This document shows, in pieces, positions 35,141 to 54,666 of a stretch of DNA of 64,000 nt. Source of the DNA: Candidatus Fermentibacterota bacterium. Lineage in GTDB: Bacteria > Fermentibacterota > Fermentibacteria > Fermentibacterales > JCC-6. Numbering within the stretch: position 1 is the first letter of the stretch; the number at the start of each line of letters is the position of its first letter. The position numbers were made by a program, and so were the translations under genes. A model generated the notes under the pieces. It saw only the letters and a list, made by a program, of their open reading frames with translations. It was not told the origin of the DNA and did not search any database. The stretch is from assembly GCA_014728175.1 (NCBI GenBank), contig WJMA01000054.1, positions 71,673-135,672 of the forward strand, read 5' to 3'.

Positions 35141-35911
35141 CTAGTCCCGCTCCGACCGGCTCACAACGTAGTCCCGATCCTCGGGGACCCAGTCGTCCTC
35201 GGCGTTGTCGGGCTCGGCCTCTCTATCCCTGTAGATTTTTATCAGATCCTTCTCCTCCATGTCCATCAGCTCCTGCAACGGCTCATCGAAGCGTCCTCCC
35301 TCGACGGACTCCACCGCGTCGGCCAGGTGGTCGGCTGCCGGAACCAGATTCCTGCCGTGCAGCCTGCGGCAGAGGATGGCCACGTTGTACTGGACCTCCT
35401 CGGCCGGGCAGCGGGAGGCACAGAGCCCGCACATGATGCAATCGAAAGACAGCTCCGCCACTCCGGAGACGTCCCCTCTGATAGCCCTGGCCATGTACTG
35501 CATTACGTCGATATCCATGGGGCAGCTCTGGGTGCAGGCGTTACACCCTATGCACTTGAATATCTCCGGGTAGAGCTCGGCAACCTCTTCGCCGGTGCCC
35601 TCCATCTCGGTGATATCGTAGCCTGCCCTGTTCCCGGGGAAGAACGGAAGAAGGGTCAGGTACATCCCGGGCTGTACGACCGTCTGGCAGGCCAGACCCA
35701 CCTCCAGTCGGTAGCTGCCGGGGGTTCTGTAAACCGTGCCGCAAGCTCCGCATACGCCGCCCCTACAGCCGCAGCCCCGGATCAGCTGGTATCCAGCGTA
35801 CTCCATGGCCTTCTGAATGGTCAGGCTGGCGGGCACGTCGAAACGCTCACCCATCACGAATATGGGCACCATCTCCTCGCTGGGTGCCTGGGAAGTATTC
35901 TTAGCTGTCAT
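35141..35911 (-). CDS. SdhB/FrdB-like iron-sulfur subunit (2Fe-2S plus two Cys4 clusters)
   Basis: Start at M130 of the track ORF (MTAKNTSQ…) gives an ATGA overlap with mvhD. Motifs RGCGCRGGVCGACG (2Fe-2S), CIGCNACTQSCP and CIMCGLCASRCP. Confidence 0.8.
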   Translation of the reverse strand: MTAKNTSQAPSEEMVPIFVMGERFDVPASLTIQKAMEYAGYQLIRGCGCRGGVCGACGTVYRTPGSYRLEVGLACQTVVQPGMYLTLLPFFPGNRAGYDITEMEGTGEEVAELYPEIFKCIGCNACTQSCPMDIDVMQYMARAIRGDVSGVAELSFDCIMCGLCASRCPAEEVQYNVAILCRRLHGRNLVPAADHLADAVESVEGGRFDEPLQELMDMEEKDLIKIYRDREAEPDNAEDDWVPEDRDYVVSRSERD

Positions 35912-36330
35912 ACAGTCATCTCCTTCGAAGCAAGGCTCAACGGACCCTTCTTCCTGAGCTCCTCGCTGAAGTTGTCCATCACCTCCGCGAACTTCTTCCC
36001 CTCCGCAGCGGAGATCCACTCCAGCCTGAGACGGGAGGATTCTATGCCCAGCTGGTCCAGGACCCGGCGCAGCAGCGCCATCCTGGTCTGGGTTCTGTAG
36101 TTTCCGTCCTGGTAGTGGCAGTCGCCGGGATGGCAGCCCCCCACCAACACGCCGTCCGCTCCCTGCCTGAAGGCCCACATGATGTGCTCCGGATCCACTC
36201 TGCTCGAACACATGAACCTCAGGTTGATCCCGTTGGGGGAGTACTTCAACCTGGAGGTCCCCGCCAGATCCGCCCCGGCGCTGGTACACCACTTGCATAC
36301 GAAGCAGACTATCTTGGGCTCGAACATCAT
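35908..36330 (-). CDS. mvhD: MvhD-family [2Fe-2S] electron-transfer protein (methyl-viologen-reducing hydrogenase delta subunit homolog), copy 1
   Basis: IVCFVCKWCTSAGADLAGTSRLKYSPNGINLRFMCSSRVDP…GCHPGDCHYQDGN is the MvhD signature; 4-bp overlaps on both sides. Confidence 0.8.
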   Translation of the reverse strand: MMFEPKIVCFVCKWCTSAGADLAGTSRLKYSPNGINLRFMCSSRVDPEHIMWAFRQGADGVLVGGCHPGDCHYQDGNYRTQTRMALLRRVLDQLGIESSRLRLEWISAAEGKKFAEVMDNFSEELRKKGPLSLASKEMTV

Positions 36331-38282
36331 TCCTCCCCCAGGCTAGCGGTTATCATCTCCAATATCTGCCTGTCGGTAAGGTTGCTCTGCTGGGTGGCCC
36401 CGCAGGGACAGGCCGCCACGCATGCTCCGCATCCCTCGCACAGGGCCTCGTTGACGACCGCTATCTCCTCTTCCTCGTCGTACTCCCGCGCGTCGTAGGG
36501 ACACACGGAGATGCAAACCCGGCAGCCGCCGCAGACATCCTCGTCGACGGCCGCGATCATGGGATCCTGTTCCATCTCGTCCTTGGAGAACAGCGCCGTT
36601 ACCTTGCTGGCCGCCCCGCTGGCCTGGGCGACGGTATCGGGAATGTCCCGGGGCGACTGCCCGCAACCGGCCAGATAGAAACCGGCGGTTATGCTCTCCA
36701 CCGGGCGAAGCTTGGGATGGGCCTCGTTCAGGAAGCCGTTCTCCCCGGTCTGGATCTTCAGCTTCTTGGCCAGGTCCTGCACTCCGGTTCCGGGGACCAC
36801 GGCGGTTGCCAGAACCACCAGGTCGGCCCTTATCTCTACGTTGCGCCCGGCGAGGCTATCAGTCCCCCACACCACGGTCTGGTCACCGTCACGGAAGATG
36901 CTGGCCACCTTTCCTTTCAAGTAGACTACACCCTCTTCCTCCTCCGCGCGGTGGTAGAATTCCTCGTAACCTTTTCCGCCCGTGCGCACGTCTATGTAGA
37001 AGATGTACGGCTGGCCGTCGTGAACCCGGTGCTTGTAGAGCATGGCGTGCTTCGTGGTGTACATGCAGCATATACGGGAGCAGTAGGGCTGGTATCTCTC
37101 GGGGTCCCTCGACCCGGCGCACTGAACGAAGACCACCTCCTTGGGAACCTTGCCGTCGGATGGTCTTCTCACCTCTCCCACCGTAGGGCCGGAGGCCGAG
37201 AGGAGCCTCTCGAAGGCCAGCCCGTCTATTACATCGGGAACCTCTCCCCCGCCGTACTCCGCTATTCTCTGCAGGGGAAGCGTCTCGTAGCCGGTGGCCA
37301 CTACGATTGCCCCCACCTCCTCCTCCACGATCTCATCCTCCTGGTCGAACCTTATGGACCCAACCTCGCAGGTGCTCTCGCAGAGCTTGCACTTGCCGGT
37401 GCGGTAGTAGACGCAGTTGTCTCTGTCTATGACCGGCTTGTTGGGAACGGCCTGGGGGAAGGGGACGTATATCGCTCCCCTGTCGTCCAAGCCCCGATTG
37501 AACTCGGAGGGAACCTTGACCGGACACTTCTCCATGCACTCGCCGCAACCGGTGCAGGTGGCCCAGTCCACGCTGGGGGCCTTCCGGCGAATCTTCACCG
37601 TGAAGTTACCCACGTAGCCGGACACCTCCTCCACTTCCGAGTAGGTCATCAGCTTTATGCGGGGGTGTTTCCCCACCTCCACCATCTTGGGGGTGAGGAT
37701 GCACTGGGAGCAGTCCAGGGTGGGGAAGGTCTCGGAGAGCTGAGCCATGTGCCCCCCTATGGACGGCTCGCGCTCCACCAGCACCACCTCGTAGCCGGAA
37801 TTGGCTATGTCCAGTGAGGCCTGGATTCCTGCTATACCGCCTCCTATCACCATCGCCCTTCTATTGATGGGAACCCTTATGGGCTCCAGGGACTCGTTGA
37901 GATAGGTCTTGGCCACTATGGACTTGATTATCTTGACCGCCTTGGCGGTGGCCCTCTCCCGGTCCTCGTGCACCCAGCTGCACTGCTCGCGGATGTTGGC
38001 TATCTCGCACTGGTACGGGTTCAGACCCGCCTCCGCGCTGGCCTGCCTGAACGTAAGCTCGTGCAGGGATGGCGAGCATGCCGCAACCACCACCGCGTCC
38101 AGCTTCTCATTCTTAATGGTATCCCTGACCAGCTCCTGGCCCGGGTCTGAGCACATGTAGATGTAGCTCTGGGCGTGCGTTATCCTGGGGTCCTTCCGGA
38201 GCTCCTCCACCACCCGGTCCACGTCTACGGTATTGGCAATGTTGATACCGCAGTGGCAGACGAAAACGCCTATCCTCTTCAC
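36327..38282 (-). CDS. hdrA: heterodisulfide reductase subunit A (FAD, multiple 4Fe-4S; electron-bifurcating type)
   Basis: 651 aa; MKRIGVFVCHCGINIANTVD N-terminus, FAD fold VIGGGIAGIQASLD, several CxxCxxCxxxCP ferredoxin motifs and the C-terminal MvhD-like Cys cluster region. Confidence 0.9.
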   Translation of the reverse strand: MKRIGVFVCHCGINIANTVDVDRVVEELRKDPRITHAQSYIYMCSDPGQELVRDTIKNEKLDAVVVAACSPSLHELTFRQASAEAGLNPYQCEIANIREQCSWVHEDRERATAKAVKIIKSIVAKTYLNESLEPIRVPINRRAMVIGGGIAGIQASLDIANSGYEVVLVEREPSIGGHMAQLSETFPTLDCSQCILTPKMVEVGKHPRIKLMTYSEVEEVSGYVGNFTVKIRRKAPSVDWATCTGCGECMEKCPVKVPSEFNRGLDDRGAIYVPFPQAVPNKPVIDRDNCVYYRTGKCKLCESTCEVGSIRFDQEDEIVEEEVGAIVVATGYETLPLQRIAEYGGGEVPDVIDGLAFERLLSASGPTVGEVRRPSDGKVPKEVVFVQCAGSRDPERYQPYCSRICCMYTTKHAMLYKHRVHDGQPYIFYIDVRTGGKGYEEFYHRAEEEEGVVYLKGKVASIFRDGDQTVVWGTDSLAGRNVEIRADLVVLATAVVPGTGVQDLAKKLKIQTGENGFLNEAHPKLRPVESITAGFYLAGCGQSPRDIPDTVAQASGAASKVTALFSKDEMEQDPMIAAVDEDVCGGCRVCISVCPYDAREYDEEEEIAVVNEALCEGCGACVAACPCGATQQSNLTDRQILEMITASLGEE

Positions 38283-39223
38283 CGGCTCCCACCCCCCTTC
38301 AGAGAACCCAGGGCCTTCTCGACCACCGGTTCGGGATCAACGTAGTGCTTGTCGAATCCTAAATCCGAGATATCCAGATCCATGGCCATCCCCAGAACCT
38401 GGGTGAAGTAAAGGATCGGAATGCTCTTGGTACCCGGATAGAGCTCGGAGATCATCTTCTGTCTGGAATCCAGATTGTAGAAACAAAGGGGGCAGCTTAC
38501 CACGATGGCGTCCGCGCCCTTCTCGGCGGCCGAGGATATGATGTTGCTGCACAGCCTGGCGGAGGATTCGGGAAAGGAGACGGAGAGATATGATCCGCAG
38601 CAGACCGTTCGGTAGGGATAGGCTACGGTCTCGGCCCCCAGGGCCACCAAAAAGTCCTCGATTATGGTGGGGTTCTCCACGCTGTCCAGCCCTATCTCGT
38701 CCTCAGGCCTGAGCATGACGCAACCGTAGTATGGAGCCAGCCGGAGCCCGGATAGCTCGGTGCTTCGGCTCTGGGCTATCTCCTCGAAACCCACCACGTC
38801 ACGCAGGTACTCCAGCAGATGCATCACCTGGACCTCGCCCAGGTAATCCCGGTAATCCTCCTCCGTGGATGGGAGGTAATCCCTCTTGGGCTGGTTCTCC
38901 CTCAGGAAGGCATTGACCCGCTTGCGGTCGAGGTCGCTGGTACTAACCCGATGGTTGGCTCTCTTCAGGCTGTTGTAGCAGAAGTCGCATATGGTCACCA
39001 GAACCTCGTCTCCCGTATCCCGCACGTCCTTCAGTATCCTTATGGGAGCGACGAGGTTCATTATCCTCTCCTCGGACGGCGGTGGAACCGCGCCACAGCA
39101 CGTCCAGGAGTCCAGCTCGTCCAGCTCGAAGCCCAGCTTCTCGGCTGCACCGAGCGCCGGCCTCTCCAGGTGTGCGGACCTCTCCTTCAGAGCGCAACCC
39201 GGATAATAGGCCACCCTAGTCAT
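38279..39223 (-). CDS. hdrB: heterodisulfide reductase subunit B (two CCG domains)
   Basis: MTRVAYYPGCALKE…WTCCGA and a second …YYGCVMLRP… CCG-type Cys-rich domain. Confidence 0.9.
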   Translation of the reverse strand: MTRVAYYPGCALKERSAHLERPALGAAEKLGFELDELDSWTCCGAVPPPSEERIMNLVAPIRILKDVRDTGDEVLVTICDFCYNSLKRANHRVSTSDLDRKRVNAFLRENQPKRDYLPSTEEDYRDYLGEVQVMHLLEYLRDVVGFEEIAQSRSTELSGLRLAPYYGCVMLRPEDEIGLDSVENPTIIEDFLVALGAETVAYPYRTVCCGSYLSVSFPESSARLCSNIISSAAEKGADAIVVSCPLCFYNLDSRQKMISELYPGTKSIPILYFTQVLGMAMDLDISDLGFDKHYVDPEPVVEKALGSLKGGGSR

Positions 39224-39268
39224 TGTTCCTCCATGCTAAGTAACGGTGTTTTCGAAACCGGCTCCCGG

Positions 39269-39706
39269 TCAGGTCGAGAGCTTCCGGTACGCGGAAACCA
39301 GACCCGGTTGGGGAACCTCGGCGGCGTTCCTGGGGTCGACCTGGTCCGGGCCGAAGTGATCGATCCCTTCGGCCAGGGCCATCTGGCGAAGAACGTCCAT
39401 CACCTTTTGTATGTCTATACCCTTGGGACACCGCACGGTACATTGAAGACAGCTTGCACAGACCCAGATGCTCCTGCTGTTCAGGACAGCTTCACTCTGA
39501 CCGAGTTGGACCAGATGCATGACCGTGCTGGGCAACAGATCCATCTCTTCGGCGAGGGGACAACCGGAGGAGCAGTTGCCGCACTGGTAGCAGGCGAGGA
39601 TGTGCTGCTCGCTCAAGCTGTCCAATCTCTTTCCGAACTCGCCCCGCACCTTTTCCCGGTCCAGCCTCAGACGCGGAGTAGTCTCGTTATCCGCTCCTTC
39701 AGCCAT
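39269..39706 (-). CDS. hdrC: heterodisulfide reductase subunit C (2x4Fe-4S)
   Basis: CYQCGNCSSGCP and CASCLQCTVRCP motifs; start at M48 (MAEGADNE) preceded by GAGAGGAG; the track's 47-codon upstream extension is rejected. Confidence 0.8.
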   Translation of the reverse strand: MAEGADNETTPRLRLDREKVRGEFGKRLDSLSEQHILACYQCGNCSSGCPLAEEMDLLPSTVMHLVQLGQSEAVLNSRSIWVCASCLQCTVRCPKGIDIQKVMDVLRQMALAEGIDHFGPDQVDPRNAAEVPQPGLVSAYRKLST

Positions 39707-40154
39707 GGCTCTCCTCTCGAGAAAGGAACCTCCGCCGGAGGGCTGGTTATCCCATCCAACTGCCCCCGGCTGGTCCCTCCCGATGTAGACTCTTCGGAAA
39801 TGTAGAGCTCCCGCGAATGGTTCCCGCGCGCCGGCGGAATATCGCAAATAACAGAGCCCATAAGTATAAGATCCTAATCAAGTGGATAGGGAATAGAATC
39901 CTACTTTCCAGATATGTCAAGGCGAGTTCCGCCCTCCGGCGGAGCAATGCGTTGAGGTGCGGCTTTCGGGGTATTCGTCTTGACAAGATTGACCTCTCGT
40001 ATTCTTGTACCCACTCGTTCCAAAGAGGCTAGGCAAGTGCGAAGTGCGGTGGTTGGAAACGAGTTGCCGTACGGATGTCCGAACTACGAGCCATAACCCT
40101 CAACATGCCCGACCGTACCTGCGAGCGGCCGTAAGAAAACGGAAAGACACCAAG

Positions 40155-41405
40155 ATGGGAAAGACGCTCAGCGAGAAGATCATCTCCAGTCACTGCGGCA
40201 AGGAGGTAACTCCAGGCGAGCTGGTCATAGCAAATATCGACGGAGCCCTGGTTCAGGATGGAACCGGTCCCCTCTCCGTGGAAGAGCTGCGGAAAGCGAA
40301 CATGGTCATGGCCGCCGTGCCGGACCGAACAGTGCTGTTTCTGGACCACGCCTCTCCCAGCCCCCGAAAGGAGCTCTCCAACGCCCACATCATCCTGAGG
40401 AACTTCGCCAGGGAGACCGGGGTGATTCTCTCCGAGATCGGAGACGGAGTCTGCCACCAGCGGATCGTCGAGGACTACGCCCGTCCGGGAGATCTAATAG
40501 TTGGTGCCGACTCCCATACGGTCACCGCGGGGGCCCTGGGAGCGTTTGCGACCGGCATGGGCTCTTCCGACGTCGGTTTCGCCATGGCCCTGGGCAAGGT
40601 ATGGCTGAAAATCCCGGAGGCTTTTAGGGTAGAGCTTACGGGCTCCCTTTCGGAGGCAGTTTACTCCAAGGACGTGATCCTACACCTGATCGGGTCGATC
40701 ACCGCGGACGGAGCGACGTACAACGCCCTGGAGTTCACCGGACCGGGAGCAACCGCGCTCAGCATGTCCGACCGGATGACAATATCCAACATGGCCGTGG
40801 AAGCCGGGGCGAAGGTGGGCCTTTTCGAATCGGACGACTCCACCCGGGAGTACCTGGAGGAGATGTCTCGAGGGCAGGATTGGAAAAGAATGGCTCCGGA
40901 CCCGGACGCCTCCTACCAGAGGACCATAGAGCTGGACCTGGGAACGGTGGAGCCTACCGTAAGCTGTCCGCATACCGTGGACAACACCTCCCCGGCATCT
41001 GAGCTGGGCGAGGTCGAGATCGACCAGGCGGTGGTGGGCACCTGTACCAATGGAAGAATCGAGGATCTACGGGTGGCCGCCTCCCTGCTCCGGAGAAGAA
41101 AAGTGTCGGACCAGGTCCGTCTCCTGGTGGTCCCGGCCTCCCGCAGGGTGTATCTGGAAGCCCTCCGGGAGGGATTGCTGGAGACATTCGTGGAATCCAA
41201 CGGAACGGTCCTGCCGCCGGGATGCGGACCCTGCGTGGGAGTGCACCAGGGCGTGCTCGGCGACGGAGAGACCTGCATCTCTACACAGAACAGAAACTTC
41301 CATGGTCGGATGGGAAACCCCAAGGGTTCGATCTACCTCGGCTCCCCGGCCACCGTCGCGGCATCGGCCCTGACCGGGAGGATCACCGACCCCAGAGAGG
41401 TCTGA
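40155..41405 (+). CDS. aconitase-superfamily hydro-lyase large subunit (LeuC/HacA type, ~416 aa)
   Basis: Start at M51 (MGKTLSEKII); …VGADSHT…, …CTNGRIEDL… aconitase-family blocks. Confidence 0.85.
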   Translation: MGKTLSEKIISSHCGKEVTPGELVIANIDGALVQDGTGPLSVEELRKANMVMAAVPDRTVLFLDHASPSPRKELSNAHIILRNFARETGVILSEIGDGVCHQRIVEDYARPGDLIVGADSHTVTAGALGAFATGMGSSDVGFAMALGKVWLKIPEAFRVELTGSLSEAVYSKDVILHLIGSITADGATYNALEFTGPGATALSMSDRMTISNMAVEAGAKVGLFESDDSTREYLEEMSRGQDWKRMAPDPDASYQRTIELDLGTVEPTVSCPHTVDNTSPASELGEVEIDQAVVGTCTNGRIEDLRVAASLLRRRKVSDQVRLLVVPASRRVYLEALREGLLETFVESNGTVLPPGCGPCVGVHQGVLGDGETCISTQNRNFHGRMGNPKGSIYLGSPATVAASALTGRITDPREV

Positions 41406-41436
41406 TCGGAAGACGAAACAGGAGAGGACTGACAAG

Positions 41437-41952
41437 GTGCTAGAGGGAAAGGCGTTCAAGTTCGGGGACAACATCTCCACCGACCACATAACCCCTGGCA
41501 GATATTTCCATCTCAGAGGGGACATAGAGAAGCTGGCCGAGCATACCCTGGAGGACGCGGACGAGACCTTCGCCTCCAGGGTCTCCGAGGGAGATTTCGT
41601 GGTGGCGGGAAACAACTTCGGGTTGGGTTCCTCCAGAGAGCACGCTCCGCGGGTCATAAAGCAGTGCGGGGTCGCCACCATACTGGCCGAATCCTTTGCC
41701 AGAATATTCTATCGCAACGCCATAAACATCGGCCTTCCGGTGATCGAATGCGACACCTCGCAGATCGAGGACGGAGACCGGATCCAGGTAGACCTCGACG
41801 AAGGCAAGGTAAGGGTACCCGAAAAGCAGATCGAGGTATCTTTCACCCCCTTCCCCGACTTCATGAAGGAGTTGCTGGCCGACGGAGGCCTATCCGCCCA
41901 TCTGCAGAAGAACAAAGGATTCAAGATTGGAGGATCATCGGATGGCCCCTGA
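41437..41952 (+). CDS. aconitase-superfamily hydro-lyase small subunit (LeuD type)
   Basis: [16 protein letters not shown] and GSSREHAP swivel-domain motifs. Confidence 0.85.
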
Positions 41953-43225
41953 GAGGATCACGGTCACCGACGGCAAGCTCGAGGTTCCCGACAAACCCAT
42001 AATTCCATTCATCGAGGGTGACGGTATAGGAGCGGACATAACCTCCGCCTCCATGGTCGTCTGGAACGCCGCGGTGAAGAAGGCTTACGGCGGCAAGAAG
42101 CGCATAGAGTGGAAGGAGATATACGCCGGGGAAAAGGGGTTCGATAAAACCGGCTCCTACCTTCCGGACGAGACCGTCGAGGCCATAAGGGAGTACGTGG
42201 TGGCCATAAAGGGCCCCCTAACCACCCCGGTCGGCGGCGGCTTCCGTAGCCTCAACGTCACCCTTCGCCAGGTCCTGGACCTTTACGCCTGCGTAAGGCC
42301 CGTCAGCTACGTGAGGGGAGTACCCTCCCCCATGAAGCATCCGGAGAAGCTTGACGTGGTCGTGTTCCGGGAGAACACGGAGGACGTCTACTCCGGTATC
42401 GAGTGGGAGCAGGGCACGCCCGATGCCAGGAAGATCATCGATTTCATAGGCTCGGAGATGGGTAAGCCCATCAGGGCGGACTCAGGGGTGGGCATCAAGC
42501 CCATCTCCATCACCGGCACCAAGAGGCTGGTAAGGAAGGCCATCGAGCACGCAATCAGCAAGAACCGTAGCAGCGTCACCCTGGTGCACAAGGGCAACAT
42601 AATGAAGTACACCGAAGGTGCCTTCAAGGAGTGGGGCTACGAGCTGGCCGCTCAGGAGTACCGCGACCGGGTGATAACCGAGTCGGAGCTGTGGGACCGG
42701 GTCATAGCCGACGACGGCGTAACGCCAACCACGGAGGAAGGCGCATTCGCTCACCTCAGGGGAGGCAGGCCCGCCGGCGACCCCGGGGACAGGATAGTGA
42801 TCAAGGACAGGATAGCCGACCAGATGTTCCAGCAGGTGCTGCTCCGCCCGGACGAGTACGCCGTCCTGGCCCTGCCCAACCTCAACGGCGATTACCTATC
42901 CGACGCCTGCGCGGCCCAGGTGGGTGGCCTGGGAATGGCCCCGGGAGCCAACATCGGTGACTACACGGCGCTGTTCGAGGCAACCCACGGGACGGCCCCC
43001 AAGTACAGAAACATGGACAAGGTCAACCCCGGCTCGCTTCTGCTGTCCGGGGTAATGATGCTGGAGTACCTCGGATGGAACGAGGCCGCCCAGGGCATCC
43101 GGGATGCGCTGGAGAAAACTATTCTCAATAAGACGGTAACCTACGATCTGGCACGTCAACTCGAGGGGGTAGAACCTGTAAAGACAAGCGAGCTGGCCAG
43201 AGCGATAGTGGACAATCTTCCGTAA
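41927..43225 (+). CDS. icd: NADP-dependent isocitrate dehydrogenase (prokaryotic homodimeric type)
   Basis: Near-colinear with E. coli Icd: [75 protein letters not shown]. Start may be the second Met at 41942. Confidence 0.9.
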
Positions 43226-46362: not shown

Positions 46363-48621
46363 ATGGCTATCACGCGCGAAGAGTCACTGGACTACCATAC
46401 CAGGGGAAGACCGGGCAAGATCGAGGTCGCATCAACCAAGCGCTGCAGAACGCAGCGAGACCTATCCATGGCCTATACTCCCGGAGTCGCCGAGCCCTGC
46501 AGGATCATTGAGAAGGATGTGTCGGAAGTCTACACCTACACGGCCAGGGGCAACCTGGTGGCGGTGATCTCCAACGGGACGGCGGTGCTGGGCCTCGGTG
46601 ACATAGGCCCCGAAGCGGGAAAGCCGGTCATGGAAGGCAAGGGTGTCCTTTTCAAGCGATTCGCCGATATCGACGTCTTCGATCTGGAGATGAATACCAA
46701 GGACCCCGAGAAGCTCATCAACGCGGTCCAGCTCCTGGAGCCCACCTTCGGAGGCATCAACCTGGAGGACATTGCTGCCCCCGAGTGCTTCCTCATAGAG
46801 GAAGAGCTCAAGAAGCGGATGAACATCCCGGTCTTCCACGACGATCAGCACGGAACCGCGATAATCTCGGGAGCGGCCCTTCTAAACGCCCTCGAGATAA
46901 ACGGAAAGAAGATAGGCCAGCTCAAGCTGGTGGTCAGCGGAGCGGGGGCGTCGGCCATCGCCTGCACCAAGTACTACATCAGTCTGGGCGTGAAGCCGGA
47001 GAACGTTCTCATGGTGGACAGCAAAGGGGTGATCTACAAGGGGCGAAAGAAGAACATGAACCCCTACAAGGAGCAGTTCGCCGCCGAGACCGAAGCCAGA
47101 ACTCTCCAGGACGCCATGAAGGGCGCCGACGTGTTTCTGGGTCTCTCCGTAGGGGGCTTGGTATCCCAGGACATGGTAAAATCGATGGCCGACGACCCGG
47201 TGATCTTCGCCATGGCCAACCCCGATCCGGAAATTACCTACGAGGACGCCACTGCGGCCCGTGAAGACGTGATAATGGCCACCGGCAGGTCCGACTACCC
47301 CAACCAGGTAAACAACGTACTGGGATTCCCCTTCATTTTCAGGGGCGCCCTGGACGTCAGGGCCACCGACATAAACGAGAAGATGAAGCACGCGGCGACC
47401 AAGGCCCTCGCCGACCTGGCCAAGGAGGACGTGCCCGACTCCGTGTGCAGGGCCTACAGGGTGGAAAGGCTGTCCTTCGGCAGGGACTATCTGATTCCCA
47501 AACCCTTCGATCACAGGGTCCTTCTCTGGGAGGCCCACGCGGTGGCCAAGGCCGCCATAGAAAGCGGGGTGGCCCAGCAGGAGCTGGACCTCGAGGACTA
47601 CAGGAACCAGCTGGAGGCCCGGCTGGGAAGAAGCTATAGCGTGATGCGGGTGGTCATAACCAAGGCCCAGAAGCACCCCAGGCGGATAGCATTCCCCGAG
47701 GGGGAGAACGACAAGATCCTCCGGGCCAGCTCATTGATCATAGAGGAGGGTATTGCCAAGCCCATACTCCTGGGAAGTCCCGACGTCATACGAAAGCGGG
47801 CCGAGGAGCTGGGCCTGGAGCTGGAGGAGGCTGAGACCATCGATCCCACCGAGTCCCCTCTGCTGGAGGACTACGCGCAGGAGTACTACCAGCTGAGGCA
47901 GCGCAAGGGCCGCACTCTGGAGCACTGCCGCGAGCTTCTTCGCCTGCCTCGGGTATACGGACCGATGATGGTGCGCATGGGCGACGCCGACAGCGTTCTG
48001 GGTGGAATCACCATGCACTATCCGGAGATGATAAGACCGGCGATAAGGGTTATCGGCACGGAGGGCGAGCCGGGGATAGTCATGGGAATGTACATGCTGA
48101 TATTCCCCGACAAAGTGATCTTCTTCGCCGACACCACCGTGAACATAGAACCCGACGCGGAGCAGGTCGCCCGGATCGCCAGGATGACCGCCAGATACGT
48201 CACCGGCCTGGGCTTCGAGCCCCGGATAGCCATGCTGTCCTTCTCCAACTTCGGAAGCTCGAAGCACGAGAAGACGCTGAAGATGAAACGGGCGACCGAG
48301 CTGGTGAAGAAGGCCGAGCCCGAGCTGATTATAGACGGCGAGATGCAGGCGGATACGGCCGTACTTCCGGGGATCATCGAGAGCACCTACCCCTTCTCCA
48401 CGCTGAAGGGGGGCGCCAACGTGCTGATCTTCCCCGACCTGCAGGCCGCAAACATAGCCTACAAGCTCGCGGCCAACCTGGGCAAGGCCGACGCCGTCGG
48501 GCCCATTCTTATGGGGTTGAAGAAGTCGGCCCACGTGCTCAGGCACGGGTGCGAAGCGGACGACGTAGTGAACATGGCGGCGATAGCCGTCGCGGAGATA
48601 CTGGAGATGTCGGGGCGCTGA
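46363..48621 (+). CDS. maeB: NADP-dependent malic enzyme, MaeB-type with C-terminal phosphotransacetylase-like domain
   Basis: 752 aa; N-terminal malic-enzyme NAD(P) domain (…[19 protein letters not shown]…, GAGASAIA) plus ~330-aa PTA-like C-terminal domain. Confidence 0.9.
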
Positions 48622-48668
48622 GCGTGGTATGACTCCCGCCAGGGCCCCGGAGGGAGCGATAGCGAAGC

Positions 48669-50990
48669 ATGGATGAGCCGGAAGCGCTGCTGAAGGGTAT
48701 CTCGCTCTTCGACGACTTCAATGATGAAGAGCTTCGCCGCCTGGTCGAGGAGAGCGAGCTCAGGGCCTACGCGCCCGGTGACCACGTGATAACCTACGGA
48801 GAGCCGGGCAGGTTCCTGGGCATAATCCTCAGCGGATCCGTCGAGGTCTCCATAGTGGACGATGACGGAGCCAGGGAGAGGTTGGCCTTGATCGAGCCCG
48901 GCTCCTTCGTGGGGGAGATGTCCCTGCTTACCGGAGAGCCCTCCTGCGCGGACGTGATCTCCCTGGAGGAAACCAGGGTCCTTATTATCCCCAACGAGAT
49001 ATGCACCAAGCATTTCTCGGATAAGCCCGGAGCCATGCGGGAGATGATAAGAACCATCTCGGAGCGACTCCGGAGCCGGGAGGAGGACGAGGCAGCCCGT
49101 CTGCGCGTGGAGGGAGCCTGGCGGGCGGTCGAGGACAGGTACGGGCTCAGGCTCACCTCGACAAAACCCGCGAGGATACTGGTAATAAACTGTGGCAGCT
49201 CGTCCCTGAAGTACGCATTCTACGACACGGTCGAACCCCAGAGGAACTGCGACGGCCTGGTGGAGAGAATAGGCGAGGATCAGGGCAGGCTGAATGCCTC
49301 CACCCCGTCCGGCGAGGTCACCAGGGACCTGGGGAAGATCGATCACGACCAGGCCTTCCAGGCTATGGCGGATATGCTGATCGATGAAGAGCTGGGGGCC
49401 ATAGCAGACCTGGAGGAACTGACCGGGGTCGGGCACAGGGTGGTGCATGGAGGAGCGAAGTACGGCAACCCGGTGGTCATCGACGAAGAGGTGGTCCGGG
49501 ACATAGACCTTCTGGCGGACCTGGCCCCCCTGCACAACCCTCCGAACCTGACGGCCATACGGAAGAGCATGCAGCTGATGCCCGACGTACCGCAGGTGGC
49601 CGTTTTCGACACCGGCTTCCACCAAAAGATGCCCAAACAGGCCTACCTGTACGGCCTGCCCTACTCCTACTACGAGAAGCACGCCCTCCGCCGGTACGGC
49701 TTTCACGGCATATCCCATAAGTATCTGGCTCTCAAGGCGGCGTCGTACCTGAAGCTTCCCTTCCGGGACCTGAAGATCATAACCTGTCATCTGGGTAACG
49801 GCGCTTCCCTGTGCGCCGTCGAGCACGGTCGGTCGATCGATACCAGCATGGGCCTTACTCCGCTGGAGGGTCTGGTGATGGGCACCAGATGCGGCGATTT
49901 GGATCCGGCGGTCGTTCTCTACCTTACCCGTCAGGAAGGGATGTCCACGGACGAGATAGACAGGATGCTGAACAAGGAGAGCGGCCTGAAGGGCCTCTCG
50001 GGGATCTCCAACGATTTCCGCGAGCTGGAGGACGCGGCCAACCAGGGCGACCGCAGGGCCCTGTTGGCCATCCACGTATTTTGCTACCGGATAAGGAAGT
50101 ACATAGGGGCTTATACGGCGGCCATGGGTGGGCTGGACGTACTGGTCTTCGCCGGCGGCATAGGCGAGCACAGCTCCTGGGCCCGGGGGCTGGCCTGCCA
50201 GGGCCTTTCCGGTATGGGAGTGGAGGTAGACGACATACTCAACCGGACCGCATCACCTTCCCAGGGTGAGGTCATAGACGTCTCCGGGGACGCCTCCAAC
50301 TCCAAGGTCCTGGTCATTCCCACCGACGAGGCCCGGATGATAGCCAGGGAGACCATCCGGACCCTGGGATACAGCTCCACCGCCGCACACATCCAGAGCA
50401 GGGAAGACAGAACGGTTCCCATAAGGGTATCCGTCCACCACGTTCACGTCACCGAGAGCACCAAGGACAAACTGTTCGGCAGGGAATACAGGCTTTCCTG
50501 CACCCGGAGCCTATCGCAACCCGGGCTGTACGCCTGCAAGGAGAAAGTGGACCTGGAAGGACCCCGGGGAATCGTGAAGGGCGTAAGAATCTACGGTCCG
50601 ACCAGAAGGCAGGATCAGGTGGAGGTATCCGTGGCCGACGAATCGATTCTGGGGATCCGTGCGCCCATAAGGCGATCCGGGGACGTGGATGGAAGCCCGG
50701 GCATAACTCTCCGCGGCCCGAAGGGCTCCTGCAAGCTCCGGCAGGGAGTGATCCGGTTCATGAGGCACCTGCACATGACCCCGGCCGACGCTCTCGCCTT
50801 CGGGCTCAAGGACGGAGACATGGCCATGGTCCGTACCGAGGGCGAGCGGGGCCTCATATTCGACAACGTCCTGGTCAGGGTTGATCCCGACTACGAGCTC
50901 TCCTTGCACATAGACGTCGACGAGGCCAACGCGGCGAACATCCGCTCAGGCATGACCGGCGAGCTTATAGGCATTCATGATCGAAGATAG
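48669..50990 (+). CDS. tri-domain fusion: cyclic-nucleotide-binding domain, acetate/propionate kinase (AckA) and PduL-type phosphate acyltransferase
   Basis: Residues ~1-150 form a cNMP-binding beta-barrel (…GEMSLLTGEPSCADVISLEETRVL…). Residues ~165-560 are acetate kinase (ILVINCGSSSLKYAF, …VVHGG…, …GFHGISH…). Residues ~575-773 carry two PduL-type repeats (…GPTRRQDQVEVSVAD… and GPKGSCKLRQGVIRFMRHLHM). Confidence 0.8.
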   Translation: MDEPEALLKGISLFDDFNDEELRRLVEESELRAYAPGDHVITYGEPGRFLGIILSGSVEVSIVDDDGARERLALIEPGSFVGEMSLLTGEPSCADVISLEETRVLIIPNEICTKHFSDKPGAMREMIRTISERLRSREEDEAARLRVEGAWRAVEDRYGLRLTSTKPARILVINCGSSSLKYAFYDTVEPQRNCDGLVERIGEDQGRLNASTPSGEVTRDLGKIDHDQAFQAMADMLIDEELGAIADLEELTGVGHRVVHGGAKYGNPVVIDEEVVRDIDLLADLAPLHNPPNLTAIRKSMQLMPDVPQVAVFDTGFHQKMPKQAYLYGLPYSYYEKHALRRYGFHGISHKYLALKAASYLKLPFRDLKIITCHLGNGASLCAVEHGRSIDTSMGLTPLEGLVMGTRCGDLDPAVVLYLTRQEGMSTDEIDRMLNKESGLKGLSGISNDFRELEDAANQGDRRALLAIHVFCYRIRKYIGAYTAAMGGLDVLVFAGGIGEHSSWARGLACQGLSGMGVEVDDILNRTASPSQGEVIDVSGDASNSKVLVIPTDEARMIARETIRTLGYSSTAAHIQSREDRTVPIRVSVHHVHVTESTKDKLFGREYRLSCTRSLSQPGLYACKEKVDLEGPRGIVKGVRIYGPTRRQDQVEVSVADESILGIRAPIRRSGDVDGSPGITLRGPKGSCKLRQGVIRFMRHLHMTPADALAFGLKDGDMAMVRTEGERGLIFDNVLVRVDPDYELSLHIDVDEANAANIRSGMTGELIGIHDRR

Positions 50991-51149
50991 ACCTTCATCC
51001 AATCTGGACAATTAGAACAGATTTGGTATGCTTTTCCTTCCGTTGACAGTATTGTTGGAACCTATTCAATGCCTACTGAATTGATATGATGCGTGCAGGG
51101 CAACCCGGTGACGCCGGGCAACCATCCCATATTTAGAAAGGTTATCCCC

Positions 51150-52580
51150 ATGAAAGAGGGCCTGGTTCAGGATCTGCAGGAGATCGTAGGCGAGGACGCC
51201 GTAAGGGACGACCCGGCCGATCTCTACGTGTACGGGTCCGACTCTTCGGTACATTGCGCCCTTCCGTGGGCCATCGTTCGTCCCGGCACGGTGGAGGAGG
51301 TGCAGGAGATCCTGCGTTACGCGAACAGCAACGGCATACCCGTCGTAACCAGAGGGGCCGGCTCGGGCATGTCCGGGCAGGCCGTCCCCATCCAGGGCGG
51401 AATCATCCTGGATATGAAAAGGCTGAACAAGATCCTCGAGATCAGCCCCGAGAACACGTACGTTAGGGTGCAGGCCGGAGTGGTCGACGACGACCTCAAC
51501 CGTGCTCTCAAGCCTTACGGCTTCATGTATCCACCCGCTCCGGCATCCAGCAGGATAGCCACCATAGGCGGGGAGATCGCGAACAACGCCAGCGGCACCA
51601 GATCCGTCAAGTACGGAGCTACCAGGGATTGCGTTCTGGGCATGAAGGTAGTGATGGCGGACGGCAGCCTGGTAAACCTGGGCTCCACCACTCGCGTAGA
51701 GGCCAGCGGCTACCAGGTGGACAGGCTGATGGTAGGCTCCGAAGGCACACTTGGCGTAATCGTCGAGGCTACCATGAAGATAGTCCCCATCCCCAAGTAC
51801 AGGTGCATGGGAGTCGCCTGCTTCAACGAGCTCGAGGAGGCCGGCGACACCATCTCCGAGATAATCGCCAGCGGGACACAACCCTCGGTGCTGGAGCTGA
51901 TGGACAACGTGGCCATCACCGCGGTGAACACGGCCATCGATCTCGGCCTTCCCGACGTGGAGGCCCTGCTGTTCATAGAGGCCGACGGCAACGTTAAGGA
52001 AGCCGTCGACTACGAGATCGAGAGGATGAAGGAGATAGCCGAGAAGTACAACGCTTTCGGCATCGATATCAGCTACGACGCAGAAAAGCGCACCAAGCTC
52101 TTCAAGGGACGCAAGAAGCTCTTCGCATCCCTGTCCAGGTACAAGGAAGGCTACTCCTGCACCTCCCTGGCCGACGACATGGCCGTACCCTACAGCAGGA
52201 TGGCCGAAATGGCCCGGAAGATCCACGATATAGCGGACCGCAACGACGTGATAATGACCGCCTACGGTCACTGTGGCTCGGGCTGCGTGCACACCAAGAT
52301 CCTGATGGACCCTACCCGGAAGGAGCAGTGGGAGGGCGCCAGAAACGCGGTCAGAGAGATATACGAGTACGTCCGCTCCGTCGGGGGGACGACTTCGGCC
52401 GAGCACGGAATAGGTCTTTCCAAAGCCCCGGCCTGGAAGAAGGAGAAGCAGGACTCGCTGGAAATCATTGGGGCCATAAAGAAAGCTTTGGACCCCAACA
52501 ACATTCTCAATCCGGGCAAGCTTCAGGACGCCCCGGACGACTGGCTGACCGCAACAGACCTTCGGTACAAGGCGGAATAG
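51150..52580 (+). CDS. FAD-linked oxidase, GlcD/D-lactate dehydrogenase family
   Basis: FAD-binding PCMH domain (…VVTRGAGSGMSGQAVP…) and C-terminal …EHGIGLSKA… motif; start at M20 (MKEGLVQ). Confidence 0.85.
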   Translation: MKEGLVQDLQEIVGEDAVRDDPADLYVYGSDSSVHCALPWAIVRPGTVEEVQEILRYANSNGIPVVTRGAGSGMSGQAVPIQGGIILDMKRLNKILEISPENTYVRVQAGVVDDDLNRALKPYGFMYPPAPASSRIATIGGEIANNASGTRSVKYGATRDCVLGMKVVMADGSLVNLGSTTRVEASGYQVDRLMVGSEGTLGVIVEATMKIVPIPKYRCMGVACFNELEEAGDTISEIIASGTQPSVLELMDNVAITAVNTAIDLGLPDVEALLFIEADGNVKEAVDYEIERMKEIAEKYNAFGIDISYDAEKRTKLFKGRKKLFASLSRYKEGYSCTSLADDMAVPYSRMAEMARKIHDIADRNDVIMTAYGHCGSGCVHTKILMDPTRKEQWEGARNAVREIYEYVRSVGGTTSAEHGIGLSKAPAWKKEKQDSLEIIGAIKKALDPNNILNPGKLQDAPDDWLTATDLRYKAE

Positions 52581-52587
52581 GTGTAGA

Positions 52588-53646
52588 ATGCTTACCGACT
52601 ACCTCAACGAATGGAAAGACGAGCTAAACATCTGCATCAGGTGCGGCTACTGCTTCGAGGGATGCCCGATCTTCAAGGACGGCGGATGGGAGCTGGACGG
52701 AGCCAGGGGCAAGGTGATCCTGGCCTATGGCCTGCTCTCCGGAGAGCTGGAGCCGACCGAGTACGTGGCGGAGAAGCTTTACCAGTGCACCTACTGCAAG
52801 GACTGCATAGAGAAGTGCTCCGCAAACGTTTCCATCCCCGATATCATGACCGCCGCCAGGGCCGATCTCCGGGAGGCTGGTTTCACCTACGACTCCCACG
52901 CCGATCTCCTGAGCAAGGTGACCGAGTCGGGAAACATCTTCGGCAAGGAGCTGAAGGGTCCGGCCACGGAGGGCGAGGTACCCGTTCTTCTGGGTTGCCG
53001 CTTCCTGGAACGGCGCGACGATGCGGAGCGGTACCTCGAGATGCTCCGGAAGCTGGGCATCGAACCAGTAGTCATCGAGGACGAGATCTGCTGCGGCATG
53101 CCCTTCGGAGTTCTGGGCTACAAGGAAGAGCTGGCCGAGCACAAGAAGAAGTTCAAGGAGAGGTTCCCCCACCAGAGGTTCATATGCCTCTGCACCACGT
53201 GCGCCTTCTTCATATCCAAGTCCTATCCGGAGCTGGAGCCGGTGTACGTAATAGACGAGATCCATAAGAGGCTTCCCGATGCCGACCTGACCGAGTTGGG
53301 CATCAAAACCACGTACCACGATCCCTGCAACGTCAGCAGGGGAATGGACATGGTGGACGAGCCCCGCGACATAATCGACTGGTTGGGCGCCGAGCTCGTC
53401 GAGTTTCCGAAGAACGCGAAGGAGACCGAATGCTGCGGGGGAGGCGGCGGGGTCCTGGTAACCGACAAGCCGCTGTCGACGAGACTCGCCGAGAAGAGGA
53501 TCCGTCAGGCGGGAGAGCTGGGCGTAGACCACCTGGTCACCCTCTGCCCCACCTGCGAGCTCAACCTGAGAAACGCGGCCGATTCCACGGGAACGGACGT
53601 AGAGGTCAGGAACCTGCTGGATCTGGTCTGTGACTCGGTACTGTAG
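52588..53646 (+). CDS. Fe-S oxidoreductase partner of the GlcD-like dehydrogenase (GlcF/HdrD-like: 2x4Fe-4S plus two CCG domains)
   Basis: CIRCGYCFEGCP and CTYCKDCIEKCS ferredoxin motifs; CCG-domain motifs (…LLGCRF…, …CCGGGGG…). Confidence 0.85.
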   Translation: MLTDYLNEWKDELNICIRCGYCFEGCPIFKDGGWELDGARGKVILAYGLLSGELEPTEYVAEKLYQCTYCKDCIEKCSANVSIPDIMTAARADLREAGFTYDSHADLLSKVTESGNIFGKELKGPATEGEVPVLLGCRFLERRDDAERYLEMLRKLGIEPVVIEDEICCGMPFGVLGYKEELAEHKKKFKERFPHQRFICLCTTCAFFISKSYPELEPVYVIDEIHKRLPDADLTELGIKTTYHDPCNVSRGMDMVDEPRDIIDWLGAELVEFPKNAKETECCGGGGGVLVTDKPLSTRLAEKRIRQAGELGVDHLVTLCPTCELNLRNAADSTGTDVEVRNLLDLVCDSVL

Positions 53647-53666
53647 GCTTACGGCACCTGGGAACC

Positions 53667-54251
53667 ATGAATGGTGAGGACAGCATGACAGCCAATTTCA
53701 AGGATCTCGAGAAATGGAGCCCCGAGCTCAACATATGCATCCGATGCGGCTACTGCTACGAGCTGTGCCCGCTTTACAAGGCCCATCCCTGGGAGTCCGA
53801 CACTCCCCGGGCCAAGATGCTCCTGGTCTACGGGCTCTTGACCGGTGACCTCGAACCCTCGCAACACGTGGCGGAGAAGATAAGCGAGTGCTTCTTCTGC
53901 AAGAACTGCGAGAACAACTGCTCCGCCAACGTCCCGGTGACCGACATTATCAAGGAGGCCAAGGCCGCCCTGGCCGAGGCCGGTTACGAGGTAGACCGCA
54001 CCGCCAGCACCGTCGACGAGGACCTCTGCTGCCGTTGCTACACCTGCGTATCGGTGTGCAAGGCCGAGGCGGTCGAACCCGACGAGGATGGGCAACCGGT
54101 GGTCGATCCGGTGGAGTGCGAGGGGTGCGGCGTTTGCGCCGCTTCGTGCCCGTCGGGAGCGATCTCCCAGAAGGACGGGTTCGGAGTATCCAGAGAAGAG
54201 CTGCGGCAGTTGCTTTTGGACACTTTGCGAAAGGGGGCCCAGGTTGAGTGA
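53667..54251 (+). CDS. HdrC-like poly-ferredoxin (four Cys4 motifs)
   Basis: CIRCGYCYELCP, CFFCKNCENNCS, CCRCYTCVSVCK and CEGCGVCAASCP. Confidence 0.7.
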   Translation: MNGEDSMTANFKDLEKWSPELNICIRCGYCYELCPLYKAHPWESDTPRAKMLLVYGLLTGDLEPSQHVAEKISECFFCKNCENNCSANVPVTDIIKEAKAALAEAGYEVDRTASTVDEDLCCRCYTCVSVCKAEAVEPDEDGQPVVDPVECEGCGVCAASCPSGAISQKDGFGVSREELRQLLLDTLRKGAQVE

Positions 54252-54666
54252 GGATCCCAGGATAGTGGTCTTCTGCTGCAACTGGTCGATTTATCCCGGG
54301 CTCCAGCTGTCGGCGATCGACGAGAATCCAGACGATCTTCCCGGGGTGAGCCACATAGTCTCCATGTGCTCGGGGAGGGTCTCACCCGAGCTGGTCATAG
54401 AGGCCTTCGTTAACGGCGCCTGGGGCGTAATGCTCGCCGGTTGCCCGACCGACGAGTGCGAGCACGATGGCAACTACAAGACCAGAAAACGCTTCATAAT
54501 GCTACGTAAAGTTTTGGAGGAATTCGGCATTGAGCCGGGTAGGATAAGCATGGACTGGTTCTCTACCGGAGAGGTCGCGAAGCTCAAGCAATCGGTGCGG
54601 GAGTTCGTCGACCGTATAACGGAGATGGGACCGGCTAGAGTCGTAAAGGAACAAGAACTCGGATAG
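54244..54666 (+). CDS. mvhD: MvhD-family [2Fe-2S] protein, copy 2 (hydrogenase-associated)
   Basis: IVVFCCNWSIYPGLQLS…GCPTDECEHDGNYK; TTG start at 54244 after AAGGGGG, overlapping the upstream stop (alternative GTG at 54265). The track's 52-codon upstream extension is rejected. Confidence 0.75.
   Translation: MSEDPRIVVFCCNWSIYPGLQLSAIDENPDDLPGVSHIVSMCSGRVSPELVIEAFVNGAWGVMLAGCPTDECEHDGNYKTRKRFIMLRKVLEEFGIEPGRISMDWFSTGEVAKLKQSVREFVDRITEMGPARVVKEQELG

Follow-up and report, generated by a model that had tools for sequence, protein, structure and literature searches.

The closest known relatives of the systems considered here are the MvhAGD-HdrABC complex of methanogens (5ODC; PMC13580544), in which the conserved, non-ligand MvhD residues Cys16, His68 and Asp71 have the [2Fe-2S] cluster on one side and, on the other, HdrA Cys202/Cys205 together with the bifurcating flavin adenine dinucleotide (FAD), and the complexes that establish module swapping on Hdr, in that Methanococcus employs Fdh or Mvh, Methanothermobacter ElpC and Moorella MetFV. 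We analysed a 64,000-nucleotide (nt) stretch of contig WJMA01000054.1 of a Candidatus Fermentibacterota bacterium (hereafter the window), which holds two mvhD genes about 18 kilobases (kb) apart. As a preliminary description had placed them, copy 1 (MvhD1) lies in an hdr operon beside a fumarate-reductase-like pair, FrdA and FrdB, and copy 2 (MvhD2) lies with mvhGA. We think it rather probable that the window encodes parts of a single soluble redox hub, centred on Hdr, that connects H2 with lactate and fumarate and has two specialised MvhDs.

With the methanogen complex the window shares HdrA (E = 1e-206 to 3e-213), a two-CCG HdrB, HdrC, the canonical MvhD1 with Cys16, His68 and Asp71, and a NiFe hydrogenase of Mvh type along with its protease. 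It differs in its bacterial host, in the FrdAB-like pair inserted in the operon, in hydrogenase genes that lie 19 kb off behind a second, divergent MvhD, and in MvhA and MvhG scores below the Vhu cut-offs; no coenzyme M or coenzyme B genes or metabolism were seen in the window. In Fdh-Hdr (M. maripaludis; M. hungatei, 7BKB) and Elp-Hdr (PMC12350162), as here, alternative donors reach HdrA via an MvhD-type [2Fe-2S] protein, and the Elp system also provides a genome with a module-specific MvhD paralogue (ElpC versus MvhD). ElpC is reported to play the same role as MvhD and to have His67/Asp70 at the HdrA-facing positions, whereas MvhD2 is without those residues (S16, P68) and is ferredoxin-tethered; the modules here are, moreover, a GlcD-type dehydrogenase and a putative fumarate reductase. 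The HdrABC-MvhD-MetFV methylenetetrahydrofolate reductase of Moorella thermoacetica, for which bifurcation has been proposed with an unknown second acceptor, shares a bacterial hdrCBA-mvhD operon extended by a non-hydrogenase redox enzyme for a high-potential acceptor, but in our case the acceptor module is FrdAB-like and mvhD correlates with the hydrogenase, not with the extra module.

Two subfamilies of MvhD

Both mvhD genes exist, as previously claimed, and are intact: each encodes 140 amino acids (aa) with a PF02662 (FlpD/MvhD) match far above the gathering score, and each aligns over its full length to the MvhD proteins of the solved Mvh-Hdr, Fdh-Hdr and Elp-Hdr complexes (end to end with chain 5ODC_D, E = 1e-45 for copy 1 and 9e-31 for copy 2). 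The mechanical open reading frame (ORF) of copy 2, 54088-54666, overlaps the upstream ferredoxin gene, and its FlpD match starts at residue 59; an in-frame TTG at 54244, overlapping the fd4 stop codon by 8 nt, gives the 140-aa protein, and the orthologue in an independent assembly (locus L006; surveyed loci are cited by number) is likewise called at 140 aa. Pairwise alignment of the two copies, a check proposed with the preliminary description, gives 34% identity.

In 5ODC numbering, used throughout for MvhD, C13, C42, C67 and C72 are the only cysteines kept in essentially all of the roughly 200 MvhDs aligned, the exceptions all falling at C67 (two alignment gaps and one Leu). Loss of the cluster cysteines from one copy had been named earlier as a possible refutation; both copies keep all four and are full length, and we rejected a decayed paralogue on these grounds.

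At other positions the homologues fall into two groups according to whether they follow Fd4, the four-cluster ferredoxin encoded upstream of mvhD2. Among 134 distinct sequences that do not (those beside HdrA, before GlcD, before MvhG or elsewhere in the surveyed loci), C13, C16, C42, H68, D71, C72 and H73 are present in 134/134, and C67 in 132, the other two being gapped. Among those that do, S16 and P68 occur in 68/68, E71 in 66/68 and D or E at position 73 in 67/68, with C13, C42 and C72 invariant and C67 retained as Cys in 67/68; the same signature is recovered where MvhD is fused to Fd4. MvhD1 carries C13, C16, C42, C67, H68, D71, C72 and H73, and MvhD2 carries C13, S16, C42, C67, P68, E71, C72 and E73. 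On these signatures we regard the two paralogues as different, non-interchangeable subfamilies.

Mapping of the HdrA-contact residues, also proposed earlier, divides the copies in the same way. Copy 1 has the complete Cys16/His68/Asp71 set and is therefore equipped for the canonical hand-over to HdrA; in copy 2 all three are replaced (C16S, H68P, D71E), and the MvhD2 subfamily as a whole has lost exactly this set, which is turned towards the Cys pair and flavin of HdrA.

The mere presence of two neighbouring mvhD genes is not unusual: related loci commonly hold three to five, and, with module swapping and MvhD paralogues established as well, the observation is in itself ordinary. FlpD/MvhD genes number four or five in loci L001 and L007/L169, a truncated one of 104 aa among them, and giant HdrA-like and GltD-like fusion proteins of 975-1503 aa are encoded there beside Fd4-MvhD2-MvhGA.

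The hdr-mvhD-frd operon and the Mvh hydrogenase

Translational coupling links mvhD1 to both neighbours through ATGA start/stop overlaps, with hdrA upstream and frdB downstream. The operon's HdrA has the flavin domain, the ferredoxin domains and, in a residue-level alignment, the TLDCSQC Cys pair that corresponds to Cys202/Cys205 of M. marburgensis HdrA. HdrB gives near-equal NCBIfam matches to CoB-CoM HdrB (E = 4e-47) and to the SdhE-type anchor, the CCG subunit of methylmenaquinol:fumarate reductase (E = 8e-42).

Scanning one genome per species, we found relatives of the hdr-frd operon in at least 348 species representatives, from Fermentibacterota, Aminicenantes, Zixibacteria, KSB1, Latescibacterota, Gemmatimonadota and Syntrophaceae-like bacteria. 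Gene order was scored on the 80 best loci, onto which the window proteins were mapped by tblastn, within 10-kb flanks; there the order hdrC-hdrB-hdrA-mvhD-frdB-frdA is near-universal. Fermentibacterota, Aegiribacteria, Zixibacteria and KSB1 carry hycI-hdrCBA-mvhD-frdBA-mvhG-mvhA with a single mvhD, close relatives of the window (L010, L013, L016) being among the single-mvhD operons with both Frd and Mvh, and loci of Aminicenantes type have mvhGA about 6 kb upstream. Across the 80 loci, 43 combine hdrA-mvhD-frdB with mvhGA, two (L077 and L089) have mvhGA with mvhD moved to frdA-mvhD-mvhG, five have neither, as do five more whose flanks are short, and in no locus with flanks long enough is mvhD found without mvhGA. 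Presence of mvhD thus tracks presence of mvhGA, which argues that MvhD1 is a hydrogenase adaptor and not a docking piece for Frd, and we take copy 1 to be the standard hydrogenase-to-HdrA adaptor. Operons reduced to hdrCBA-frdBA, with no mvhD or mvhGA within the flanks, occur in Aegiribacteria and Latescibacterota (L014, L017, L018, L024, L029, L056, L061, L064), which implies that these organisms use another electron donor to HdrA.

The window lineage departs from this arrangement in that its hdr-frd locus (window, L170, L172) is without mvhGA and hycI, unlike that of its relatives. The window's sole Mvh lies 19 kb from the operon, and a tblastn search of all 64 kb gave no other copy of MvhD, HdrA or MvhGA. 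MvhD1 is 76-81% identical to its relatives with all signature residues present, and the same Mvh clade (69-81% identical) occurs in L047, L156 and L001, at loci with an MvhD1-type gene beside HdrA, with an Fd4-MvhD2 pair nearby in some and not in others.

If the preliminary description is read as two separate complexes with one MvhD apiece, copy 1 would dock the Frd pair onto HdrABC in place of the hydrogenase, and MvhD2 would belong to MvhAG, which would dock a lactate dehydrogenase (LDH) module independently of Hdr. We judge separate complexes of this kind unlikely. Gene placement is in their favour, as mvhD1 shares overlapping start and stop codons with hdrA on one side and frdB on the other, mvhD2 lies 8 nt before mvhG, and the order fd4-mvhD2-mvhG-mvhA-hycI is found again in L006, L007/L169 and L092; in Fdh-Hdr, Elp-Hdr and MetFV-Hdr, moreover, MvhD works for modules other than a hydrogenase. 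Against them, hdrCBA-frdBA exists without mvhD when mvhGA is absent (L014, L017, L018, L056 and others), mvhD and mvhGA occur together in 45 loci and mvhD alone in none where flanks suffice, the single mvhD of L077 and L089 stands beside mvhG and not frdB, and one mvhD suffices for operons holding both Frd and Mvh (L010, L013, L016). Nor does the second half of the proposal fit the wider distribution of the MvhD2 subfamily, which is followed by mvhG in 4/58 loci only, compared with 74/74 for Fd4 and 50/56 for GlcD. What survives of a modular Hdr system is that hydrogenase, Frd-type and LDH-type units are shuffled between loci; Frd as an alternative to Mvh does not.

As far as catalytic residues and gene context go, the fumarate-reductase label of the FrdAB-like pair holds. 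Alignment of the FrdA-like protein to 3P4P_A shows H232, T244, E245, R287, H355 and R390 (E. coli FrdA numbering) to be kept, and the position of His44, which carries the covalent 8-alpha-histidyl FAD, to be Asn; these catalytic residues and the Asn are invariant in 36 homologues. A non-covalent flavin is typical of fumarate-reducing enzymes (FrdA His44 variants, soluble fumarate reductases), and we predict non-covalent FAD for the FrdA-like protein. Pfam found no match to PF02910, the C-terminal SdhA/FrdA domain, and the best NCBIfam match is TfrA at 342 bits, under the 718 cut-off. Homologues of the FrdA-like protein show 70-93% identity from end to end, and an N-terminal extension of about 95 aa without Pfam match, present in 36/36 aligned homologues, may be a docking surface for Hdr. 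FrdB has a plant-type [2Fe-2S] motif (C49, C54, C57, C75) and two CxxCxxCxxxCP motifs of the [4Fe-4S] type, with more than 7600 homologues at E<=1e-10 that are typically 60-76% identical across phyla.

In type E complex II, SdhB has a second [4Fe-4S] cluster in place of the [3Fe-4S] cluster. The two full CxxCxxCxxxCP motifs of the window's FrdB are alike in this respect, and a CCG-domain subunit is likewise common to type E succinate:quinone reductase or methylmenaquinol:fumarate reductase (SdhABE) and to the window, whose HdrB matches SdhE at E = 8e-42. Methanothermobacter TfrAB shares a flavoprotein of non-covalent-FAD type, accompanied by an Fe-S subunit and a CCG protein like HdrB, but the TfrB fusion (SdhB-like plus CCG) is split here into FrdB, HdrC and HdrB, and the FrdA-like protein differs in its sub-threshold TfrA score (342 against 718), its extra N-terminal domain, its want of PF02910 and its setting with HdrA and MvhD. 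The FrdA-like protein seems closer to soluble fumarate reductases, TfrA and NadB than to complex II, and HdrBC-FrdAB resembles a split thiol:fumarate reductase or a type E complex II; we expect the pair to work like a soluble fumarate reductase, and do not file it as a member of Tfr or of complex II.

Neighbouring genes are of the corresponding pathways: sucCD and fumAB adjoin the frd operon in the window and in its 93%-identical relative L172, an epimerase-like glyoxalase-family gene and sucC lie 3' of frdA in L001, and the Aminicenantes operon includes fumarase, POR, ack and pta. In one group of loci (type B below), fumarase alpha and beta flank hdrC-hdrB-frdB-frdA, near methylmalonyl-CoA carboxyltransferase genes, larA and glcD-fd4::mvhD. 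L-aspartate oxidase, which shares the catalytic residues and non-covalent FAD, was considered as an identity for FrdA and found less likely, given the dedicated Fe-S subunit; the fumarase, sucCD and methylmalonyl-CoA context also disfavours it. Locus L063, from Aminicenantes, has genes for acetate kinase, for a HEAT-repeat protein of 612 aa and for an unknown protein of 165 aa (2396-6183) that separate mvhGA from hdrC, and a three-subunit 2-oxoacid:ferredoxin oxidoreductase (POR), a fused fumarase and a DRTGG-PTA follow 3' of frdA (12735-19907).

The GlcD-Fd4-MvhD2 module and its surroundings

The Fd4 family is compact, with 7 clusters at E<=1e-30 in a search of 1.84 billion cluster representatives. 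The C-terminal half of Fd4 is 47% identical to HdrA residues 571-634 (64 aa), a likeness also found by NCBIfam, and most Fd4 homologues are 310-340 aa long and fused to an MvhD domain. An AlphaFold2 model of one Fd4::MvhD fusion (P0060) matches the MvhD fold (template-modelling score 0.75-0.83) and the HdrA ferredoxin domain in Foldseek. Fd4-MvhD2 looks like the ferredoxin-domain plus MvhD wire of HdrA2-type fusions, and the HdrC/GlcF-like domain of Fd4 would face the GlcD flavin.

We surveyed 80 metagenomic loci containing Fd4, taking as denominators those with enough flank. In 74/74 loci Fd4 has an MvhD2-type sequence after it, fused to it in 65 and split from it in 9, and GlcD is directly upstream of Fd4-MvhD2 in 50/56. 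The next gene 3' of Fd4-MvhD2 (n = 58) is larA in 21, canonical mvhD in 20, none of the query genes in 13 and mvhG in 4. Three arrangements are met repeatedly: type A, which is Thermoplasmatales-like and reads hdrA-hdrC-hdrB-mvhG-mvhA-hycI-mvhD-glcD-fd4::mvhD-mvhD-...-hdrA; type B, whose loci read glcD-fd4::mvhD-larA-fumA-hdrC-hdrB-frdB-frdA-fumB and contain neither hdrA nor mvh; and type C, that of the window (glcD-(hdrD-like)-fd4-mvhD2-mvhG-mvhA-hycI). Because the subfamily is tied to Fd4 (74/74) and GlcD (50/56), and to mvhG in 4/58 only, MvhD2 would be the output adaptor of a GlcD-type module and not, as had been proposed, the hydrogenase's own subunit.

The earlier lactate-dehydrogenase-like label for this module seems to hold for catalytic residues and gene context. 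The GlcD-like protein scores 402 bits against NCBIfam glcD (cut-off 568), and its likely start, ATG 51150, gives 476 aa, the length of the L006 orthologue. From the larA linkage (21/58 loci and the window), its substrate is probably D-lactate. In the window larA, ack and pta lie near the glcD-like gene, as they do in the Desulfovibrio lactate-utilisation operon. HdrD/GlcD units, for which lactate has been proposed as donor, and GlcD+GlcF-type (Dld-II) D-lactate dehydrogenases share the succession of a GlcD-like FAD enzyme and an Fe-S/CCG protein, but most relatives here are without the CCG protein, GlcD being followed by Fd4 fused to MvhD. The HdrD-like gene of the window and L006 is a lineage-specific insertion absent from most GlcD-Fd4-MvhD loci; its N-terminus is 45-52% identical to that of Fd4, and it looks like a CCG-bearing paralogue made by local duplication. 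Downstream, MvhA has the NiFe motifs CGVC and DPCLAC-ATH, and 54675-57627 is the only Mvh hydrogenase locus of the window.

A second alternative makes GlcD-HdrD-like-Fd4-MvhD2-MvhAG a self-contained, non-bifurcating lactate-linked hydrogenase, in which H2 reduces pyruvate or an HdrD-type disulfide, or lactate yields H2 at very low H2 pressure, and leaves HdrABC-MvhD1-FrdAB hydrogenase-free with MvhD1 idle or serving an unknown donor. In the window and L006 the seven genes are packed into a single tight operon, mvhGA and hycI are missing beside the hdr-frd operon in the window, L170 and L172, and the HdrD-like insertion with its two CCG motifs is specific to the lineage. On textbook potentials, however, uncoupled electron transfer from lactate (about -190 mV) to H2 (-414 mV) is strongly endergonic, the full conservation of MvhD1 (76-81%, all signature residues) argues for a retained function, and in L047, L156 and L001 Mvh of this clade is linked to HdrA through MvhD1-type proteins. 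We rate this account slightly lower again than that of separate complexes.

The preliminary description had named a chimeric contig as a possible refutation, and we rejected it. G+C content is 0.60-0.62 across 8-kb bins, the tetranucleotide correlation of each bin with the remaining window is 0.95-0.975, and that between the two mvhD loci is 0.93. A single sequencing run (SRR25621639) yields 98%-identical copies of both frdB and fd4, and independent assemblies reproduce the orders ack-glcD-hdrD-fd4-mvhD2-mvhG (L006) and sucCD-fumAB-x-frdAB-mvhD-hdrA (L172 and L170). The closest matches of the window proteins are from Candidatus Fermentibacteraceae (76-82% identity). A trivial origin of the two genes as redundant recent duplicates, a decaying pseudogene or a two-organism chimera, for which the bare presence of two FlpD genes and nothing more can be cited, is extremely improbable, since the copies are 34% identical members of two cleanly separated, widely conserved subfamilies, both are full length with the four invariant Cys kept, composition is uniform and the loci recur in the sample and in other assemblies.

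Between 28 and 58 kb the window is a dense block of central-metabolism and redox genes (Table 1). The fusion of a cyclic-nucleotide-binding (cNMP-binding) domain to acetate kinase and PTAC suggests cyclic-nucleotide control of acetate or propionate formation, and the cluster at the end of the window looks like a membrane-bound group-4-type hydrogenase combined with a sulfhydrogenase-type NAD(P)H module.

Table 1. Genes of the window discussed in the text, in order of position
Feature	Position	Strand	Description
sucC	28317-29468	+	succinyl-CoA synthetase; Pfam ATP-grasp_2/Ligase_CoA
sucD	29465-30337	+	succinyl-CoA synthetase; Pfam CoA_binding/Ligase_CoA
fumarate hydratase class I, alpha	30337-31182	+	Pfam Fumerase E=3e-119; GTG start overlaps sucD stop
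fumarate hydratase class I, beta	31197-31754	+	Pfam Fumerase_C E=3e-56
548-aa ORF	31774-33420	+	between fumarase beta and frdA; no Pfam match; weak, below-cut-off likeness to LA_3751/LA_3752 putative glycosyltransferases; same position in L172 (541 aa) and L170
frdA-like flavoprotein	33445-35124	-	559 aa; PF00890 E=3e-75
frdB-like Fe-S subunit	35141-35911	-	256 aa; SdhB-like, from sequence and motifs
mvhD copy 1 (MvhD1)	35908-36330	-	140 aa; PF02662 (FlpD/MvhD) 170 bits, E=2e-50
hdrA	36327-38282	-	651 aa, full length; E=3e-213 to 8RVU HdrA; NCBIfam HdrA2/HdrA
hdrB	38279-39223	-	314 aa; Pfam CCG x2, two complete CCG motifs (10 Cys)
hdrC	39269-39847 (ORF limit)	-	two [4Fe-4S] motifs; likely start Met47 near 39709
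aconitase-family and dehydrogenase genes	40005-43225	+	split aconitase-family large and small subunits, isocitrate/isopropylmalate dehydrogenase-family gene; between both redox loci; may belong to a TCA branch or to a homo-aconitase/isopropylmalate-type pathway
PEP carboxykinase gene		+	after isocitrate dehydrogenase, followed by larA
larA, lactate racemase	45058-46326	+	Pfam Lar_N/LarA_C
malic enzyme + PTA	46363-48621	+	unusual fusion
cNMP-binding domain + acetate kinase + PTAC	48669-50990	+	fusion; PTAC of phosphate propanoyltransferase type; L006 copy 90% identical
glcD-like FAD-linked 2-hydroxyacid dehydrogenase	51093-52580	+	Pfam FAD_binding_4 and FAD-oxidase_C
HdrD/GlcF/TfrB-like gene	52588-53646	+	two [4Fe-4S] motifs and two CCG motifs
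fd4 (four-cluster ferredoxin)	53667-54251	+	HdrC/GlcF-like dicluster domain, then HdrA C-terminal-ferredoxin-like dicluster domain
mvhD copy 2 (MvhD2)	54244-54666	+	140 aa, TTG start; PF02662 123 bits, E=9e-36
mvhG	54675-55655	+	best NCBIfam match VhuG 221 bits, cut-off 450
mvhA	55709-57172	+	best NCBIfam match VhuA 418 bits, cut-off 800
hycI-type maturation protease	57169-57627	+	directly after mvhA
hybrid hydrogenase cluster	59466-64000		AsrA/ShyB-like; AsrB/HydG-like FAD/NAD(P) subunit; HydN/DmsB-like ferredoxin; NuoH-like membrane subunit; NuoB-like small subunit; NiFe large-subunit start at window edge

Proposed electron flow and its meaning

In the Hdr-centred hub that we favour, MvhAG would reach HdrA through MvhD1, the canonical [2Fe-2S] adaptor to the HdrA flavin, and FrdAB would attach to the HdrABC core with no need of MvhD, as the likely high-potential electron sink that replaces the heterodisulfide at HdrB or stands in series with it. 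MvhAG-MvhD1-HdrABC-FrdAB would oxidise H2 with flavin-based bifurcation at the HdrA FAD, one electron passing from the HdrA flavin to HdrC, FrdB/FrdA and fumarate, possibly via or beside the HdrB clusters, and the other from the HdrA flavin to ferredoxin. The potentials concerned are about +30 mV (E0') for fumarate, about -190 mV for lactate and -414 mV for H2. Lactate electrons would run from GlcD through the four Fd4 clusters to the tethered MvhD2, and GlcD-Fd4-MvhD2 would feed the HdrBC-FrdAB branch, exchange electrons with MvhG, or both; the type-B loci, which have no hdrA, suggest that MvhD2 can pass electrons to HdrBC-FrdAB or another partner. Reduced ferredoxin could be re-oxidised by the membrane-bound hydrogenase whose genes lie 2 kb downstream, at 59.5-64 kb, which would give quinone-free energy conservation.

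Within this scheme, it is a tentative reading that MvhAG-MvhD1-HdrABC-FrdAB represents a new class of enzyme, a flavin-based bifurcating, quinone-free fumarate reductase in which the exergonic reduction of fumarate by H2, and by lactate via the GlcD-Fd4-MvhD2 arm, would drive that of ferredoxin. Jointly with that reading, and as tentatively, the Fd4-tethered MvhD2 may be an MvhD repurposed to dock on partners besides HdrA.

Several points weigh against the hub and its assignments. We infer the complexes, the direction of electron flow and bifurcation from gene order, motifs and homology, and we infer that C13, C42, C67 and C72 are the [2Fe-2S] ligands from their conservation and one sentence in PMC13580544. 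Co-occurrence of mvhD and mvhGA was scored only within 10-kb flanks, from tblastn matches to the window's own proteins. In Moorella-type HdrABC-MvhD-MetFV a canonical MvhD works without a hydrogenase, and MvhD1 could in principle serve another partner here in the same manner. The order fd4-mvhD2-mvhG is common to five lineages, and since mvhD2 and mvhG, 8 nt apart, apparently belong to one operon, GlcD-Fd4-MvhD2-MvhAG may be envisaged as a dedicated complex. The AlphaFold2 models of the P0060 fusion (predicted local distance difference test score, pLDDT, 66) and of FrdA (pLDDT 62) are too uncertain to argue from about interfaces or domains, and of the former we used only the matches to the MvhD fold and the HdrA ferredoxin domain.

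In the searchable literature, outside which most subscription journals fall, neither an Hdr-linked FrdAB operon nor a GlcD-Fd4::MvhD module is described, and the Hdr-Frd(-Mvh) operon, the GlcD-Fd4::MvhD module and the residue rule for MvhD subfamilies appear to be undescribed there. The sole trace of the operon in the literature searched is a remark, drawn from STRING, that places HdrA next to 'succinate dehydrogenase' in Zixibacteria and Syntrophaceae; neither the Hdr-Frd operon nor the GlcD-MvhD module is taken up in the genome papers on Fermentibacter and Aegiribacteria.

Hdr-based bifurcation is well understood in methanogens only, and the acceptor of bacterial HdrABC is a long-standing question, for which hdrCBA-mvhD-frdBA(-mvhGA) offers a concrete candidate, fumarate, in a tractable and very widespread system, with metagenomic homologues of 60-80% identity by the thousand. 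The contrast of C16/H68/D71 with S16/P68/E71 can be used as a sequence rule to predict the module to which an MvhD paralogue belongs. If the proposed scheme is true, uncultured anaerobes of the FCB group and Acidobacteriota would carry out cytochrome- and quinone-independent fumarate respiration by H2 cycling with a membrane-bound hydrogenase, and the view of energy conservation and H2 handling in the succinate- and propionate-forming fermenters of digesters and sediments would have to be revised.

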